Origin: Octopus vulgaris
Lineage: Eukaryota
Direction: 5' to 3'
DNA: 64,000 nucleotides
Assembly: GCA_951406725.2 (NCBI GenBank)
Contig: OX597818.1
Span: 11,532,001-11,596,000, forward strand
The notes under the pieces are model-generated. The model worked only from the letters and a program-made list of their open reading frames with translations. It did not search any database and was not told the origin of the DNA. The position numbers were made by a program, and so were the translations under genes. Below are positions 11,181-58,214 of this stretch, piece after piece. The first letter of the stretch is position 1; the number at the start of each line of letters is the position of its first letter.

Positions 11181-11349
11181 ACGCATATATGTGTGTGTTT
11201 GTATGTATATGTACACACGTGTGAGTATGTATATAGATATATATGCATACATGTGTGTGTGTGTGTGTATGTATGCATATGCAGATTCTATGAATGAAGT
11301 ATTACTTTCACCGTGCCTATTAGAGTAATTTCCCTTTATTTAACAAGTT

Positions 11350-11424
11350 TTGTCTAAATAACTGATGAGATGCCGGAGCAGACTTCATCTCCGGTATCTG
11401 AAACTCTGAGTTTTATTATGGCAA
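11350..11424 (+). ncRNA. Type I hammerhead ribozyme motif
   Basis: CUGAUGA at 11362-68, 10-bp stem II GAUGCCGGAG/CUCCGGUAUC, one extra U, GAAA at 11400-03, stem III ACUC-U-GAGU, GUU triplet, stem I AAUAA/UUAUU plus UUGUC/GGCAA. Confidence 0.72.
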
Positions 11425-11636
11425 CCAACTAATTGTCATATATTATATTTATAGATAAATTCCTCTATTTTATATAATATCGAGATCTCATTCATTCTTT
11501 TGTTGTCATATTATTATCTATACATATAAATTTGACATGGGTGATTCTTTCTTGTCTCGGTATTCACGGTCAAACGCGAAAAATTACACAGATGTTTAGA
11601 ATGATTCATTGGTGATGCTGGGCTTTGTATTTTTTT

Positions 11637-11946
11637 CATAGCTTCCATGGTTACCAAGATAATCTGCTATAATAATAGTCTTGTGTTTATGAATGAGAAA
11701 GGAAGGAGTGATAGATGAATAAGGAAGGAAGGGATGATGTCATATTTTTTCATAGCTCCCATGGTTACCGAGATTATCTACTATAATAATACTCTTGTGT
11801 TTATCAATGAGAAAGGAAGGGGTGATGTCATATTTTTCCATAGCTCCCATGGTTACCAAGATAATCTACTATAATAATACTCTTGTGTTTATGAATGAGA
11901 AAGTAAGGGGCGATAGATGAATAAAGAAGGAAGGGGTGATGTCATA
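11637..11946. repeat. Three-copy tandem repeat (periods 114 and 88 bp)
   Basis: CATAGCTYCCATGGTTACC begins at 11637, 11751 and 11839. Confidence 0.9.
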
Positions 11947-23285: not shown

Positions 23286-26200
23286 TATATGAATGAATTT
23301 TTTCAATATTTCAAAAATTTGTTTTTGTCTTTTTTTTTCCTTCCAGAAATATATCTTATCGTTACCCCTTTCTTTATGTGTATACATCGAAGAGCATCCT
23401 TCAAGATTTGCTCGAAGGTAACTCAACTTTTGAAATATTTTACTAAAAATTAGATTTATTTTTTTGTTTGTAAAATCTGTAAATGAGTTTAGAAATAAAG
23501 ATTCCTTGTGTAACTCCAGTTTGGAAATATGCATACCAGAAGAAGTAACACATCTGGTGATAATCAAGACTTAAAGCTATCAAAACATAAGTAAATATTA
23601 AAAAATGCATTTCTAAAATGTGCAGTGAATAATCTGAAAAATTATTGTTGGCATTCACTTGTAGTTAATCTGTAGTGAGCGATTGAGCCTCTTCATTCTG
23701 ATGGGTGCAAAGTGTGCTGGTGTATGAAGTGGCTGTTGAGGCCAAAGACAGTATAGAAGAGCTGGGAGCATTTATCACGGGGGAGGGTTTGCAGAGGACA
23801 GTGTCGTACAAGTCATTCTTTGCTTCTGTTATTTTCCATTTGGTCCATTCCCTCAATGATGACAAGCTGCCACTTTTGGTGGTCCTTGGCGATTGTGTCC
23901 CAGGTATTTGAGTTGTTGGAGCAGTGGAAGGAAATGGGTTTGCACTGATCTTGGAAATGGAATTTGGGTGCTCTGTGTGGTCTGGTGCCTAAGGCCAACT
24001 CCACAAGGAAGAGTTAGCAGGGGAGGCACAATTGAAGTATATGTATAATCAAAGGTAGTTTTAAAAGGCTTTGAATTTGTTGTAAATATGTTGGATAATT
24101 ATTTTACACCTGTCTTATGAAGTTTGATGGAGTGAGGCTGTTTCCTAGAAGTAATCATATTAGTTTCATTAGCAATGGAACTGAAACATTTCTAGTTTGA
24201 TCTAGATATATTTGTATTTTAAGGAATTGATAATCTCATAGAATCTTGTCAAAGGGAATGCTAATCATCTCTCTCAATATGAATCTATTCTGTTACAATA
24301 GATCTGTATTTGTATTTTAATGTTTGTATGAGTAGTATGGTTCAGTAAATATTCATAGCATGTTGAATCAATGTTTTTATTCCTAGATTTCCCTAATCTC
24401 AATTGTGTGAAGTTGGATTAATATATAGAGTGCTGCATATTTTTGATATATTTAGAATGATACATATTTTTGAAATCAGCTAACCGATGCAAGTGTATAG
24501 AATAGCATAAAATATCTTGTAGTGTTTCAACTTAGTTCCAATTTACATGGCACTCATGTTATTGACATGTAAAAGGCACCCGGTACACTCTGTAGAGTGG
24601 TTGGCATTAGGAAGGCCATCCAGCCATAGAAACCAAGCCAAAACAGACTGGAGCCTGGTGCAACTCTCCAGCTTACCAGTTCCAGTAAAACTGTTTAACC
24701 TGTGCCAGTATAGAAAATGGATGCTAAATAATGATGATGTTTTATTGTTTGTTAGCAGGTTTAAATTGTTTTTAATGAAGCTTGAAGACTATTACTTTGT
24801 AGAATGAATTAAAACAGTATATTGTAAAGTTCTCATTAATATATCCTTTTCTGTGAAGCTTATGGATTAGGCATAGCACTTTACTCTCTTTTACTTGTTT
24901 CAGTCATTTGACTGCGGCCATGCTGGAGCACTGCCGTAAGCCTAGTACTTATTATATCAGTCCCTATTGCTGAACTGCTAAGTTATGGGACATAAACACC
25001 AGCATCAGTTGTTATGCGATGTTGAGGGAACAAACACAGACACAAACATATACACACACATACATATATATGACGGGCTTCTTTCTACTAAATCTACTCA
25101 CAAGGCTTTGGTCGGCCTGAGGCTATAATAGAAGACACGTGCCCAAAGTGCCACGCAGTGGGACTGAACCACTTTGTTGATGTTTCTAGCATTTTCTGAT
25201 CTATACCAGTGTATTAAATCAGCTTTAGCTGATCTCTATGTTTCTAGTTTTAGCTCTTTGTATAAATCAGCCAAAGCTAGAAAATTTGATATCTATTTGC
25301 AGATATATACAAAAAGATATATTTAGTATATAGCTGCTCTTGTTTGAAGTATTTATTTTCTGACTTTGTATGAATTCAAATTTAGTGAGAATGCCTTGAA
25401 ACCAACTCAGAGTTTCATCATCATCATCATCATCGTTTAACGTCCGTTCTCCATGCTAGCATGGGTTGGACGGTTCGACCGGGGTTCTGGGAAGCCAGAA
25501 GGCTGCACCAGGCTCCAGTCTAATCTGGCAATGTTTCTACAGCTGGATGCCCTTCCTAACGCCAACCACTCCGTGAGTGTAGTGGGTGCTTTTTACGTGC
25601 CACCTGCACAGGTGCCAGGCGAGGCTGGCAACAGCCACGGTCGGATTGGTGTATTTTATGTGCCACCGGCACGGAAGCCAGTCGAGGCGGTGCTGGCATC
25701 GGCCACGAGTCGGATAGTGCTTTTTACGTACCACCAGACCAGGGATCCTGGCTGGTTCAATTCGATTTCGATTTCCCTAACATGTCTTCACAAGCAAAGG
25801 GGGTTGGCATGGGTGCCTGTCGTACGGTCGCATTGGAGTATTTTACGTTCCACGGCCACGAGTCGGATAGTGCTTTTTACGTACCACCAGACCAGGGATC
25901 CTGGCTGGTTCAATTCGATTTCGATTGCCCCAGCATGTCTTCACAAGTAAGGGGTTGGCATGGGTGCCTGTCGTACGGTCGCATTGGAGTATTTTACGTG
26001 CCACGGCCACGAGTCGGATAGTGCTTTTTACGTACCACCAGGCCAGGGATCCTGGCTGGTTCAATTCGGTTTCGATTTCGATTTCACTTGCCCCAACATG
26101 TCTTCGCAAGCAGGGGGTTGGCATGGGTGTCTGTCGTCGGATGAGGTTCTATATCGACTTCGCTTGCCTCAACAGGTCTTTGTGTCCAAGGGAGGAAAGG

Positions 26201-51121: not shown

Positions 51122-52716
51122 AATGTACCATGTATGCAGTTGTAACAGCATTTCAGTGTTATTAGTCTATACAAGTCCCATGTATTGAAACCTTAATGAA
51201 ATTGTTTGTATTGTTGCTGTATAGTTCAAGGTCAACTCCTATCGAATAGTGTCATGATCAGTGACATTCCATCCATGATCAACCTGTCTTTTTTGTTTTC
51301 CCAAGCATAGTTAATCATTATTGTCCATGTTTTTCTAAATACTAGTCAAAAGAGGAAAGAGCAATGTCATTGACCTTTGCAAACACTCCTAGGCTGTTGG
51401 AATTTGTGCAGCTGATGCCAAGATTGATCTTCTACAAGACATATGAAGGCTAGAAGGAGGGAACCAGGGTGTAGTTAGAATGTTACCAAAGCATATATTT
51501 GTGTGAATGATTGTTGCTGATGTTAAACACCCAAATCAAGTTGCTAAAGCATGTTTTTGTGTGAGTGATTGCTGCTGATGTTTAACCCCCAAATCAACCC
51601 TTAGAAAGCAGACCTACGACCAAAAGAATTGTAGCTATTGTATTTCAATGTATGTGGAACTACATTATCTAGCATTGTTTTTTTTAAGATGTCAGTTTGT
51701 AATTTGAGGCAGATTAGGTTTAGAGATTTCAAGCAGGTTGATTGTCTATGTATAGGCTCCACCAATGGCTCAAAATGTCTGTAGGTGAATGTGTGTGATG
51801 TCACTAATTGAAATGTTTATAGAACACCTTTATATAATATTCCTCTGTTATGAGGATCATCCCATGTTCCTATGTGATGACAGTTCTCATGCTGTCTGAT
51901 CTTTTTTTACCTATTTAATGTCACACAACACAATCCTATGTGTTGTCACTAATACACTGTTTCAATAAAATGTTATTAAGCCTTTATCAATACTGTTTCA
52001 TATTCTTTTTCTGTATCTTGAATTTATCTTAATATTCTTTCTAATTTTAAGGTTATCAAGTTCGGTGTGGTGGTGGTGGGGAGGTTAAAGTCTATTATAT
52101 CGACCCCAGTGCTCAACTGGTATTTATTTTATTGACCCTGGCAGGATGAAAGGCCAAGTCGACCTAAGCAGAATCTGAACTTGGAACGTAAAGACGAACA
52201 AATGCTACTAAAAATTTTGTCCAGTGTGCTAATGATTATGCCTCTTAATTTCTCTTAATATCAAAAGTAATACAAAGGCGGCGAGCTGGCAGAATCGTTA
52301 GCACGCCGGGCGAAATGCGTAGCCGCATTTCGTCTGCCGTCTGAGTTCAAATTCCGCTGAAGTTGACTTTGCCTTTTATCTTTTCAGGGTCGATTAAATA
52401 AGTACCAGTTACGCACTGGGGTCTTTTTAAGTTTAGTACTTATTTTATCGGTTTCTTTTGTCGAACCGCTAAGTGACGGGGACGTACAGCAACGGTTGTC
52501 AAGCAATGGTGGGGGACAAACAGACACACAAACACACACATACACGACGGGCTTCTTTCAGTTTTCGTCTACCAAATCCACTCAAGGCTTTGGTCGGCCC
52601 GAGGCTATAGTAGAAAATACTTGCCCAAGGAGCCACGCAGTGGGACTGAACTCGGAACCATGTGGTTGGTAAGCAAGGTACTTACCACGCAGCCACTCCT
52701 GCTCCCATATATATAT

Positions 52717-53213
52717 TTACACGAAGTAAAATGTATGTTCGGTCATTGGGTGACCAATGGTTTCGCATCCATAAACCGCTTAGCTTATAGACGACTCATC
52801 AGTCTCCAATGGCTGCGAGTATATAGTCTCTTCAAACTGGAGGTAGAAAACTATTATGGTTAGTCAATTTGTAAACAAAATAATATTCTATACTGTTTGA
52901 GCCCTAAACTGGACGGGTTATTACGTTTAGATCGGTCTGGTCATCAAAATCTTATAGTCCTAACCAGTGCACGAAGAATCTCCGCCCTTAGGTTGGTTCC
53001 GCTCCGCAAATATTTTTTACCGTCCTACTCGACGAACAGGAAATCCTACGCCTGCAGCAGGTTGCGACTAAAATGTAGACAGAGGCTATAGATCTCGTTT
53101 CTAGAGTTTAAGAGCGTCTCCGGGTCAAGATGGTCTTTCAGGATTTTCGCCTGCTTTGCTATACAAAGCTTGCATCCTCCGCTTCCGTTTAAATAAGACC
53201 TTGGATGTTCTAC
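52717..53213 (-). mobile_element. 3' end of a Penelope-like retroelement (Naiad-like): GIY-YIG endonuclease C-terminus plus pseudo-LTR
   Basis: 53213-53046 translates as VEHPRSYLNGSGGCKLCIAKQAKILKDHLDPETLLNSRNEIYSLCLHFSRNLLQA* (CxLC...LLNxRxE...CxH). A hammerhead motif follows, and the element ends at a (TA)n run. Confidence 0.75.
52744..52811 (-). ncRNA. Type I hammerhead ribozyme motif (Penelope-associated)
   Basis: CUGAUGA, stem II (G-C plus 11 bp with 3 G.U), GAAA, stem III ACC-AUU-GGU, GUC triplet, stem I CAUUGG/CCAAUG with an A.A mismatch next to the core. Confidence 0.8.
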
Positions 53214-54586
53214 TGGCTAAAGCGTTGCTGCCGCCTCCGCTGTGGCCAATGTGCTCCTGTTATTACTCTAGTTGTTAGGGCTGGATACCACCACAGCCTC
53301 AAATATGACCCCCTCAGCCTCACATTGCTTCCCCGCCCCAATGGGAAGTCATTGTATTCCCTGCATGAGCAACCTGCCTCTGCTTGCGTGGATGCTCACC
53401 AATATTCTTTTCCTGTTGGGCGTGCAACTAAAGAGCCTAGGTTGCACGTATTGAACAAATGCCCGTACCAGTGTGTCTGCATGAATGGACAAGTACTTCA
53501 CGCATTTGATAAGTGTTTCTAATAAGGGGGGGGGGAACCAGGAAGTTAAGGGGAAAGGAACAATAGATTAAACCAGCCACCAGTACTTGACTGGTGCTTT
53601 ATTTTATTAACCTCAAAAAGACGAAGTTGACATAGGTGGAATTTTAACTCAGAACGTAAAGGGCACTGTATCCGACTGCCCTAATATTGGTTTCAAATTT
53701 TGGAAGAAGGAAGATAAGTTGATTACATCGATCCCAGTGCTCAACTGATACTCATTTTATCGACTCCAAAAAGATGAAAGGCAACGTCGACCTCTGTGGA
53801 ATTTGAACTCGGAACGTAAAGACCGACACATTTTGTCCGACGTGCTAACGATTCCGCCAGCTCGCCGCCTTATCCGACTGAACCTAACATTAATTATGTA
53901 GAATTTGACACTAAATAACATAGATAATACAAAACATTAAACTATATTAACATACCTCTGTATCGAATCAATTAACATCATAAATCAAAGAAATGTGTTT
54001 GAGGTGCATTACCAAAAGTATTGTTATTTGGTTAGAGATTAGTGAATTTTATGTGTTAATCACCACACCCTTCTAGGTTCAGTTTGTTTCTCTGTTTTAT
54101 TAGTCTCTATTTACATGGCTCAAACCAACTCCGATTATATTCAAACTAGAGTATTTAAGGAAAATGGTCCAACCTCTACAATAACCTTGAGTAATTTGAT
54201 AGCATTAACTACGTCGTACCAACTGGCACTTTTGGAAAATGATTAAACTTCAAAATCCATATACACATTAATGAGTATCTTGTGAGTTGACATTCAATAT
54301 CCGCATTCTTTATTTTCTAATCAGATGGTGTCAGTGTAGTCAGGTGTTCTAAACACTTTAAAATCTTTCTTCAATTTTTAAAAAACTTTTTATGTATATA
54401 GTCCAGGACCTGAAATATTTTCTACTTCTTCCAATTGATCTAAATTTCAAAAATACTTTAAATCTGTAGGAGCCAATGTGGATTTAAATAAATCTATTTT
54501 GACTTGGGAAGCCTATTAAACTTGTTCGAACATGAATAGTAGTGACATCTTTTTTTTCTAACAAACGCTTTTGCTCTTCATTATAG

Positions 54587-55329: not shown

Positions 55330-56390
55330 AGGCATCTCCTTTCTAGCCCTATTTTCTTTTAAAGGTGGAAGGTGAAGTAATTCACCAATGCAGGGCCTGA
55401 GATGAAGATGCCTGACTTTAAGCCTTTCAATCTCGTCTTCCAAATCAGCTTTCTCGCAATTGCTACTACAACGAGAAAACTAATCTTAGCTTCTTTTGAT
55501 AGGAAATCCGGTGGGTCGATTTTTACAATAGACTCAGTCGATTGCCGTTCTCTTTCTGTACTTGACAACAGTTATTCCACACAAACCCACACATCTGGCA
55601 CTGAATAATAGCATGCCGGACGGTTTCCCTATCCTGCCCACATCTTGGACAGGTTGACTGGTCGAGGCTGCCATACCTTGTGAGCTTGTCCCGAACAGTT
55701 AAGGCTCCTCGGTAACATTGCCCTGCTAATGACTTCTGAAAGTTATCCAGGGTCTTTGGCCTGAATGTACGTTGGAACAAACTGGCCAGCTGATTATCGT
55801 CGAGACCTTGGGTCTCACTTAAGGTTATCCGCACATTCCGCCTCTATAGAAAAATGCGGTTGAACCACTACTACAGGCATTGCTCGAACGGCGGAATAGC
55901 AGGAACCATGTTCCCAGCTTCGATTTACGATAGAACCAGGTTTCCCATCCACCGAAACTCAACCTCAGCGCATGTCTGCCCATCAACATCCAAGGCATCC
56001 CTAGTCCACTCGTTAACGGTTGTTGGTAGCAAACAGAACGTTTCACAAGCGGAAGAGCTGTCTTTCCGGCTTGATTAACCACGAATCAAGGCAAGGAACG
56101 ACAGTTAAGCGGTAGGTGATGACCGATGCGATGAACATATTGGCTACCTCCGCCTTCCTTTTCAGGGACAGCCACTGCGAAGTCCAGGTCTTGACTATGT
56201 GGGTTACTCTGCTCGATACCTCAGCCCAATTCTTCTCTATTTGGAGGTCCAAACCAAACCAAACCAAACCTCTAGCAACTTAATCGGACCCTCCGTCCAA
56301 CGTCCCACGACGCTGCCAGGAGGCATCGACTTGCCTCTCCCGGTGCCGAGCTGCAAGCCGACTGACTTTTCCCGATTAATCTTTGCTACT
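55330..56390 (-). mobile_element. L1/Tx1-clade LINE ORF2 fragment
   Basis: W...WLSLKRKAEVANMFIAS, SGLGMP, and zf-RVT CPRCGQDRETVRHAIIQC, with frameshifts. Confidence 0.85.
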
Positions 56391-58214
56391 GGCAAATAGA
56401 AACTCAATAGTAATGCACTTTAAGTTTGGATTATGATACCTTATACAAGTAACAAACATATTGAACTGTTGATAGTAGATTCATCGTGTTGCATGGAAAA
56501 CAGAAAATGCGGAAGATCAAATATCAAGACTTTTTCCATATCTTCGACGACATTGCATTGTATTCGCATTCAACAGCATGCATTTTAGAAGAGGTAGGGA
56601 GTCTTCCTACGTTATGATTTTAACCACACCTGCAATTACTGGAGTTATGATCTCTTCACCAACAGTATCCGATTTTTTTTCTCCGCTATATCGAGAGGGG
56701 TGCTGTATGATGTGTTCAACCCCCTTTCATTATCGACACTGGCAGATGCATTAAATGAAATAATGTCATAAAAATATAGAAACAACGAGAGACGCGAAAT
56801 AAATTGCTTTTAACGGGAGAACTCGAAATAGATAAGCTATAAATAGTGTGTAAATAGTACATTAAAAACCCTTGGATAGAAAAAAAAATCGAAGGCTACT
56901 GGTGGAACTGGGACCTACATATTATGTAAACACGAAATATATGTGTTCGAGTTCCATTGGCAGCTTTCAACTTTGCCCATCAAAAAGTTTTATAACCCAA
57001 TGTTTACTCATGTGAATATTATCCGCATTTCATTTTAGTATTTGTTATCTGACAAGCCCGCGATAGTTCTGGGCGTAATTTATTCACTGGTTGTCCCTAA
57101 ACTATTTGGGTCCACCAATGACAGAACAAGCACAGAAAATAATGCAGCCAGAGTACTCTAGCCTTATCACAAGCCATATTTGAAAGTGAAGCTAAGGCCA
57201 CGAAAAAAGGAAAAAGAAAGAATGAAAATGAATTCTATAATGCTTTAAAGGTACAGCTAATTTGTTTAGCGAGTATTAGTGGTGGTGATGATGATGTTTA
57301 TATTGAAACGTCAGAGGGTAGAAATGCAAAGAGAGGGAGAGAGAGAAAATTCTAACTGAGTTAGAATGGGAATTAATTAAACATATTTAAAGTATTTTTG
57401 AAGCGTATCATAGTATATAAACTAAAAATGCTGTACATATATACACACACATACATCGTGGCACTCCGTCGGTTACGACGACAAGGGTTCTAATTGATCC
57501 GATCAACGGAACAGCCTGCTCGTGAAATTAACGTGCAAGTGGCTGAGCACTCCACAGACACGTGTACTCTTAACGAAGTTCTCGGGGGAGATTAAGCGAG
57601 ACACACTGGTGGTAGGGTAATATGCTTTTTAAATAAAGTATATATAAATATATACCACGAGCTTCTTTCAGTTTCCGACTACCAAATCCACTCACGAGGC
57701 TTTGGTCGGCTCGAGGCTAAAGTAGAATACACTTGCCCAAGGACTGAACCTGGAACCATGTGGTTGGGAAGCAAGCTTCTTACCACACAGCCACGCCACT
57801 TTCTTTTTGTAAATTTTACAATGCTGTTTTCTTTCAATCCAAAATTACTTTCTGTGTATTTAGCATCTAATAAAGTCGTATTCATTATATTGAATTTCTA
57901 CTTCTTATTCGCCATAACCTCTTTATTTATGTTAAGAAGCTCATTAAAAAAAAAGCCCCCCAAAGCAACAGAAAATCTACGATAACGGAACGAGAAATTG
58001 GGATGTTTACTGCAAAAATGCATTGCACAAGATAGAATGACCAGATGCAAACCAATGATTCTTCAGCTAATTGGTTCTGTGATAATCTACTCTATTCAGA
58101 CTTGGATATTTGTAACTCGGGATTGATATCAAATGAACAGAGGAGAATATTACGAACTAGAGAGAAAGTTTAAAAGACTAAGGCAAAGGAATACCAGGGC
58201 CAATATAATGGACT

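Follow-up and report, generated by a model that had tools for sequence, protein, structure and literature searches.

Two groups of Penelope-like elements (PLEs), the Naiad and Hydra clades, are the closest described systems to the locus considered here. According to the available text of PMC8557442, Naiads carry an N-terminal nuclease with a CCHH motif, joined to the reverse transcriptase (RT) by a CxC domain, and have no canonical hammerhead, while in Hydra elements the nuclease is C-terminal and lacks CCHH, the linker is of the form CxCx5C, CxxC and CxH motifs lie around the residues E and N, the hammerhead is canonical and the target is (TA)n. Elements of the Hydra clade that end in a 3' hammerhead have already been published in that text, octopus included, and the accessible part of its supplement gives Hydra-1_Obim a hammerhead with stem III ACCA-A-UGGU. 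Dimer cleavage has been proposed for such motifs, for which weak in vitro activity is given in the consulted sections of PMC4209133. In the sections of PMC11167929 available, an optional tail of PLEs, 30-40 nt long, is tied to two RT start sites. Long in-frame Asn-rich inserts, with proposed growth from (AAY)n, are described for Penelope elements of Adineta vaga in the part of PMC3846280 at hand.

The window analysed here comprises 64,000 nt of the Octopus vulgaris genome (contig OX597818.1, positions 11,532,001 to 11,596,000). An element was located on its minus strand at 53485-52717 (Table 1), and it is very probably a Hydra-clade PLE copy that is truncated at its 5' end, has suffered an internal deletion and is likely dead. 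The hammerhead of its family is of type I and is predicted to cleave as a dimer, and the family's GIY-YIG endonuclease is interrupted by a long in-frame insert of low complexity, for which a looped-out position is predicted. The original prediction, which was made from the letters of the window, had reported the smaller interval 53213-52717; the real start lies 270 nt farther upstream, and many genomic relatives of the window copy align from 53485 on. Its reading of a Penelope-like 3' end with a GIY-YIG peptide was borne out by relatives with an RT upstream and by tblastn matches, and that of a type I hammerhead by the sequence and by covariation across 97 copies, so that the initial observation was confirmed and the initial interpretation partly supported. 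The minus-strand frame containing CKLC...LLNSRNE...CLH was indeed found open (53216-53046, 56 residues), with CLH located eight residues before the stop and not at its very end, as had been read; the gap of 235 nt between the stop codon and CAUUGG (52811) was reproduced. Used alone, the 56-residue peptide retrieved no homologue among longer proteins, and Pfam returned nothing for the window peptide or for three longer nuclease pieces, with one sub-threshold zinc-finger match for copy L086.

Table 1. Features of the element copy and its immediate flank (window coordinates).
Feature	Coordinates	Strand	Basis or remark
RT thumb end, 5' end of truncated copy	53391..53485	-	FN..NL..SFSCTPN-type translation, frameshifted; blocks 74-88% identical to fuller copies L147/L150
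Hydra-type CxCx5C linker and first GIY-YIG strand	53290..53390	-	Matches Hydra rows of Fig. S7 (PMC8557442, available part) and alignment A3
Start of Asn/Ser/Thr-rich insert and internal-deletion junction	53213..53289	-	L150 alignment skips offset 403 -> 928 between 53241 and 53212
GIY-YIG endonuclease C-terminal part (CKLC, LLNSR.E, CLH) and stop	53046..53212	-	tblastn with Hydra-type proteins P0006, P0003: E 6e-9, 6e-7
3' untranslated region; putative pseudo-LTR, by analogy	52812..53045	-	~70-80% identity with family
Type I hammerhead motif, whole	52743..52811	-	Sequence, covariation in 97 copies, per-position states
Hammerhead stem I arms	5' arm 52811-52803; 3' arm 52751-52743	-	
Hammerhead core CUGAUGA	52802-52796	-	
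Hammerhead stem II	52795-52765	-	11 pairs, three G.U
Hammerhead GAAA	52764-52761	-	
Hammerhead stem III, near-palindromic ACC-AUU-GGU	52761-52753	-	C17 = 52752
Short-type 3' end, without optional ~55-nt tail	52717..52742	-	26/61 other family A copies stop here
Five AT units, likely (TA)n target remnant	52707..52716	.	Unrelated very high-copy repeat next (depth jump)

The family of the window copy, assembled as 48 matches from the best 40 of 633 candidates, is old and dispersed, its members being 69-84% identical to the window copy apart from the match to itself, and several copies have inverted partner copies, as is typical of Penelope-like insertions. From a protein search, in which the best 150 of 5687 candidates were scored, 40 loci were taken with longer flanks; these sort into four subfamilies (A, B, C and D), with the window copy belonging to A. 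An RT was found upstream of the nuclease in six fuller copies (L147, L148, L149, L083, L114 and L122), and the order RT-thumb-linker-EN was seen in L147, L148, L149, L114 and L122. As the frames are broken in all old copies, we infer a single ORF for RT and nuclease. The RT text of the fuller copies is close to that of the published Hydra-1_Obim. The linker of the family copies reads CSCREYNDC (CxCx5C), and CxxC and CxH motifs surround E and N in family alignments A2 and A3. A CCHH motif is absent, there being no conserved Cys pair between the strands, and the near-invariant columns match the Hydra rows of Fig. S7 in the accessible part of PMC8557442. RWK and DKT at the RT N-terminus were seen in one family locus, L107, which also has the family linker, and in a young family described below.

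On this domain order and these motifs, the element is assigned to the Hydra clade, as a family other than the published Hydra-1_Obim. The original prediction had named the Naiad group instead, from the Cys/His pattern and the (TA)n target. Octopus does appear among the genera with Naiads, but the (TA)n target does not distinguish the clades, since both use it, and there is practically no chance that the element is a Naiad: a nuclease at the C-terminus, after the RT, already contradicts that domain order, CCHH is missing, the linker and the CxxC/CxH motifs are of Hydra type, and a hammerhead is present in the ordinary type I order. Two further candidates were rejected. A family devoid of RT and Zn-linker was ruled out, both having been found upstream of the insert, and a non-LTR retrozyme, consisting of non-coding tandem hammerhead units, does not agree with a single motif behind coding sequence and no tandem array at the site.

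Most 3' ends of the family are followed by TA/TG runs when inspected by eye; a strict regular expression recovered these in 14/61 cases, a count kept low by long-type ends, which break off several bases too early for it. The ends themselves fall into two types. Among the 61 other family A copies, 26 end where the window copy does, 29 about 55 nt later and 6 elsewhere, with microsatellites after both end types in many copies. Such a pattern agrees with the optional tail of PLEs, although the ~55 nt of family A exceed the 30-40 nt given in PMC11167929 (available sections). At the window copy itself, the (TA)n run that had been noted is present, but consists of merely five AT units (52716-52707) before a very high-copy repeat begins, and no target-site duplication was readable at the flanks of this copy.

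The window copy is broken. It has no RT core, its linker has Phe in place of the third Cys, and its first strand reads GVIFEAVV in place of the family's GVIYEAVV. An internal deletion of ~500 nt took all of the insert beyond its start, together with the YIG strand and the helix that bears the conserved Arg and His, and the conserved Glu after CxxC is Lys. Because of the 5' truncation, the loss of ~500 nt of nuclease, the Glu to Lys change and the breakage of 3/6 stem I pairs, the copy is likely dead. A run labelled as another organism contains both the insertion and its deletion (a 932-nt contig with 15 differences in ~890 nt), and in one run's contig of the window locus (depth 8.9, one contig) C3 of the hammerhead (52802) is changed to U.

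The hammerhead of the window copy was largely as predicted: the CUGAUGA/GAAA core on the minus strand, with three G.U pairs in an 11-pair stem II, was recovered from the sequence, and the predicted cut at 52752/52751 agrees with C17 at 52752. The minus strand folded with a z-score of -4.45 (0/200 shuffles as good), against -2.06 for the plus strand (8/200). An Rfam search for a hammerhead gave 0 matches at the gathering threshold and 2 unrelated matches at E<=10, from models that may miss forms with a long stem II and minimal stem III. A core-plus-stem-II descriptor matched twice in the window, as compared with three times in 40 doublet-shuffled windows, and both window matches belong to repeat families. 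Stem I had been read as CAUUGG/CCAAUG, which proved to be a shifted register created by mutations in the window copy; in the register of the family, stem I is UGGAGU/ACUCUA. It had further been suggested that an A.A mismatch may weaken this copy; the copy is weakened, but the damage is greater than that, with 3/6 stem I pairs gone and an alternative rod fold prevailing. At three positions where U prevails in family A (45/47, 41/47 and 41/47 copies), the window copy reads A, C and A, respectively, and only 2/47 family A copies keep three or fewer of the six stem I pairs. The A.A pair, at 1.1-2.1, lies beside the cut. A new A allows the core to pair with the cleavage strand, as it does in the rod that is the best fold of this copy, and opening the core costs 8.6 kcal/mol, the highest value of 27 core-intact copies.

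An active or host-co-opted ribozyme at this site would fit the survival of all 11 core positions and C17, a state shared by only 8/47 family A copies, as well as the possible shifted 6-bp stem I and the presence of the insertion under a different organism label. It is nevertheless improbable, given the A.A pair adjoining the cut, the core-pairing best fold with its opening cost, the contig with C3 changed to U, and the failure to find any host-gene-like long open frame in the window, where one 216-codon low-complexity frame is present. The preferred reading is of an old and likely silent copy, as judged from the lost stem I pairs, the rod fold, a family A core that decays like the stems, the C3 to U contig and the insertion under another organism label.

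The family as a whole was considered through an alignment of 97 of 118 hammerhead rows from four subfamilies; the 21 rows dropped had visible deletions or truncations or were duplicates, and their removal raises the paired fraction. Across these 97 copies, 85% of 2180 cells were paired, as against 32-49% with the partners slid. Two-sided changes numbered 143, compared with 71 in shuffles that ignore relatedness (0/500 reaching the observed value), and two of five covariation measures were not above the shuffles (119/500 and 130/500). Stem I was paired in 85.7% of cells across the family while changing from GAGU/ACUC in A to GGAU/AUCC in C. In loop III, which consists of one base, the pair that spans it was AU in 50 copies, UA in 19, CG in 13, UG in 5 and GU in 2, with 7 unpaired and 1 gap. 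A one-base loop cannot close within a single strand, and this pair therefore most likely forms between two motifs, that is, in a dimer. Core positions C3-A9, G12-A14, A15.1-U16.1 and H17 hold the same majority state in all four subfamilies. In family A the core has decayed (0.13) like the stems (0.12-0.14) and the loop (0.15), whereas in family C it has decayed more slowly (0.057 vs stems 0.12-0.14), which CpG and search selection account for in part, not wholly. The heptamer CCAUUGG occurs in family A both in the stem I 5' arm and in stem III, giving alternative pairings, and was not seen in C (alignment A1).

In copies that retain more of the nuclease, the first strand, VIYEA, precedes a tract rich in Asn, Ser, Thr, Gly and Asp that lies upstream of YIG. 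Both strands are held by 25 copies, and in the 16 without an evident nested repeat (judged by eye) the two Tyr codons are separated by 207-583 nt, or 69-194 codons. Such lengths are out of the ordinary for homologues: among 76 measurable spacers from 151 proteins, 73 were of 10-20 residues and one of 34, two long values (72 and 86) being pattern mismatches by reading, and the spacer of the young intact family in the same genome measures 18 residues. The insert codons follow a purine-N-pyrimidine pattern in the nuclease frame, and in 17/25 copies the frame with the most Asn and Ser coincides with that of the nuclease at each end, for which the chance expectation is about 1 in 9. Of the insert indels, 47/87 have a length divisible by three, as would be expected equally from constraint on the frame and from triplet slippage. 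Copy-specific tandem expansions were observed, namely a 30-nt unit repeated ~20x in L101 (~1600-2200), a 21-nt-type unit in L105 and a longer unit in L010, and these suggest insert growth by slippage.

Since Penelope elements can retain introns, the insert might be a spliceosomal intron that is removed before translation. Only 8/16 uninterrupted spacers have a length divisible by three, and no synonymous excess was found in the insert (1 synonymous vs 11 non-synonymous codons, a comparison in which the family sorting is unreliable and two groups are mixed). Both points would suit an intron, but this explanation is very unlikely in view of a purine-N-pyrimidine codon pattern that stays in step with the nuclease frame on either side, an A/C-rich stretch with no pyrimidine tract before the YIG strand, the lack of any stop over 130-155 codons in L060, L086 and L096, and an NCBI gene model, P0001, in which a related insert is read as protein. 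P0001, whose Octopus bimaculoides annotation is that of an uncharacterized low-complexity protein, represents the insert and nuclease of an element of this kind, and some annotated host genes may likewise be copies of such elements. Two Hydra-type proteins from elsewhere are also of note: P0111 has a 34-residue Ser/Thr/Asn spacer between the strands, and P0064 an Asn-rich expansion in the thumb-to-linker region.

Constraint on the nuclease was assessed from subfamily majorities. The A-D differences in the nuclease core are distributed 6/5/29 over the three codon positions, with a dN/dS of 0.11; values of 0.05 and 0.13 were obtained for B-D and C-D, the three other subfamily pairs being saturated. 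The residues R, H, CxxC, E, N and CxH are conserved across the four insert-bearing subfamilies. In a tree of the nuclease only, built with homologous proteins, a single branch (support 100/98), separate from the young family, unites the insert-bearing rows with P0001 and the decayed P0011. When an exact clade of the 14 insert rows was tested, the p-AU was 0.21; this was not decisive, as P0011, in its sequence similar to a degraded copy of subfamily B, nests among them. From the third-position bias and the residues conserved in four subfamilies that form one branch, it appears that the nuclease core was under purifying selection at a time when, most likely, the insert already existed.

A structure model of copy L056, based on an alignment of 62 sequences, was of high confidence to either side of the insert and of low confidence within it. 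Strands 24-32 and 176-179 of the model form the GIY/YIG hairpin, packed with the Arg and Glu helices. The best match was the I-TevI catalytic domain (PDB 1ln0; Z 8.5, rmsd 2.3, 87/92 residues over the range 22-264, both strands included), followed by EndoII and UvrC. A Foldseek search yielded nothing at E<=0.001, the entries for UvrC and EndoII coming up at E ~6, and single-sequence structure prediction reached a pLDDT of 33.6. As the alignment drives the pairing and is all gaps over most of the insert, the model speaks for compatibility of a GIY-YIG fold with the insert, and not for activity.

Alternatively, the insert may have killed or crippled the nuclease, with the insert-bearing subfamilies spreading by means of the nuclease of insert-free relatives. 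A possible donor exists in the young, intact, short-spacer Hydra family of the same genome, and every insert-bearing subfamily sampled is old, with copies 10-19% diverged from their own majority; among the loci examined, no insert-bearing copy with an unbroken RT-to-nuclease frame was found. We consider a borrowed nuclease unlikely, however, because it is opposed by the third-position bias and the conservation of R, H, CxxC, E, N and CxH in four subfamilies of one branch, as well as by a fold that closes around the insert in the model. We infer instead that the insert-bearing nuclease likely kept working.

Drawing on known Penelope biology, the following cycle may be proposed for the family. 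One ORF would yield RT and C-terminal nuclease, the nuclease would nick (TA)n DNA, and the RT would begin copying the RNA at either of two sites separated by ~55 nt, which would account for both types of 3' end. Hammerheads in tandem transcripts would pair via the near-palindromic stem III and cut after GUC/GUA, possibly assisted by the element protein. Cleavage, dimer use and nuclease activity with the insert are all presumed in this scheme, and the finding that hammerhead cleavage is unnecessary for insertion in vitro (PMC11167929, available sections) counts against a part of it.

The young Hydra-clade family already mentioned (L175, L182 and others, on many contigs) was represented by the best 150 of 24550 candidates scored. 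Its median identity among 25 loci is 98%, several loci have 717-codon open frames, and it is a candidate active element. Its hammerhead has the core CCGAAGA, with C at position 4, and stem III ACUC-A-GAGU, and two 3' end types were again seen. Elsewhere in the window, a second hammerhead-like motif was noted at 11300-11520 (plus strand), with its core at 11362, stem I AAUAA/UUAUU, a 10-bp stem II, stem III ACUC-U-GAGU and a predicted cut after GUU. This motif lies in the untranslated 3' end of another repeat family (2911 candidates; 78-90% identity among the 40 main matches), and its flanks resemble the 3' end of the young Hydra family. Translated fragments at 55523-56400 (minus strand), CPRCGQDRETVRHAIIQC, resemble the RT and zinc-knuckle end of a non-LTR element. 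Tandem repeats occur at 25700-26077 (period 151, 2.5 copies, 96%) and 11718-11914 (period 88, 2.2 copies, 91%).

Taken together, we think it fairly probable that an octopus Hydra-clade lineage comprises at least four subfamilies whose putatively working GIY-YIG endonuclease carries a disordered Asn/Ser/Thr loop of ~70-190 residues in its catalytic beta-hairpin, apparently the first low-complexity insert described inside a Penelope nuclease domain, and whose hammerheads, with four to five pair types covarying across loop III, have been selected to work as dimers. The hammerhead itself is of a known kind; what is new is the predicted splitting of a GIY-YIG nuclease by a long low-complexity loop, together with covariation that favours dimer cleavage. 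No report of an insert inside a Penelope nuclease domain, or of one in octopus, was found in the literature searched, where only PMC8557442 and PMC3846280 proved relevant, though Repbase, Dfam and the repeat library of PMC13282606 may hold these families; the part of the PMC13282606 main text that was available has no mention of Hydra or ribozymes. If the reading is correct, a small GIY-YIG nuclease tolerates a domain-sized loop in its hairpin, and the observation of Asn-rich inserts in rotifers extends to a high-copy lineage. Owing to the long insert in the hairpin, such copies would be missed or annotated as low-complexity host proteins, P0001 being an example. The covarying loop III pair would make the dimer mechanism of Penelope hammerheads testable with natural pairs, in which a matched stem III should cleave and mixed subfamilies should not, and the young intact family of this genome could serve as a scaffold for tests of both insert and dimer.

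I-TevI and other GIY-YIG nucleases are not known to have either a long insert between the two strands or Hydra-type Cys/His motifs. The nearest relative is Hydra-1_Obim, which, in the available part of PMC8557442, shares with the present family an RT followed by a C-terminal GIY-YIG nuclease, CxCx5C, CxxC/CxH, the lack of CCHH, (TA)n and a canonical 3' hammerhead, and is very similar in its RT and post-YIG text. Both have a stem III with a one-base loop (ACCA-A-UGGU in Hydra-1_Obim as given there, ACCA-U-UGGU in the window copy), whereas stems I and II of the Hydra-1_Obim hammerhead differ from those of the family. The inter-Tyr spacer of Hydra-1_Obim, in the text available, measures 27 residues by eye, as against 69-194 codons in the octopus insert subfamilies, and this Asn/Ser/Thr-rich spacer may have been the seed of the expansion. 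Compared with the metazoan Penelope type I hammerheads of PMC4209133 (consulted sections), the motif likewise shows a long stem II, with one additional base left unpaired at its 5' foot, and a small palindromic stem III; it differs in a longer stem II (11-12 bp) and in a stem III of four palindromic pairs, the fourth of which covaries in four to five states in one genome. The Adineta vaga inserts, of ~460-550 aa, lie at the RT/EN or the RT core/thumb boundary in families of very few copies, according to the part of PMC3846280 at hand. The octopus insert, in contrast, lies inside the catalytic beta-hairpin, is a mix of Ser, Thr, Asn, Gly and Asp, and is spread over four subfamilies with hundreds of candidate copies.
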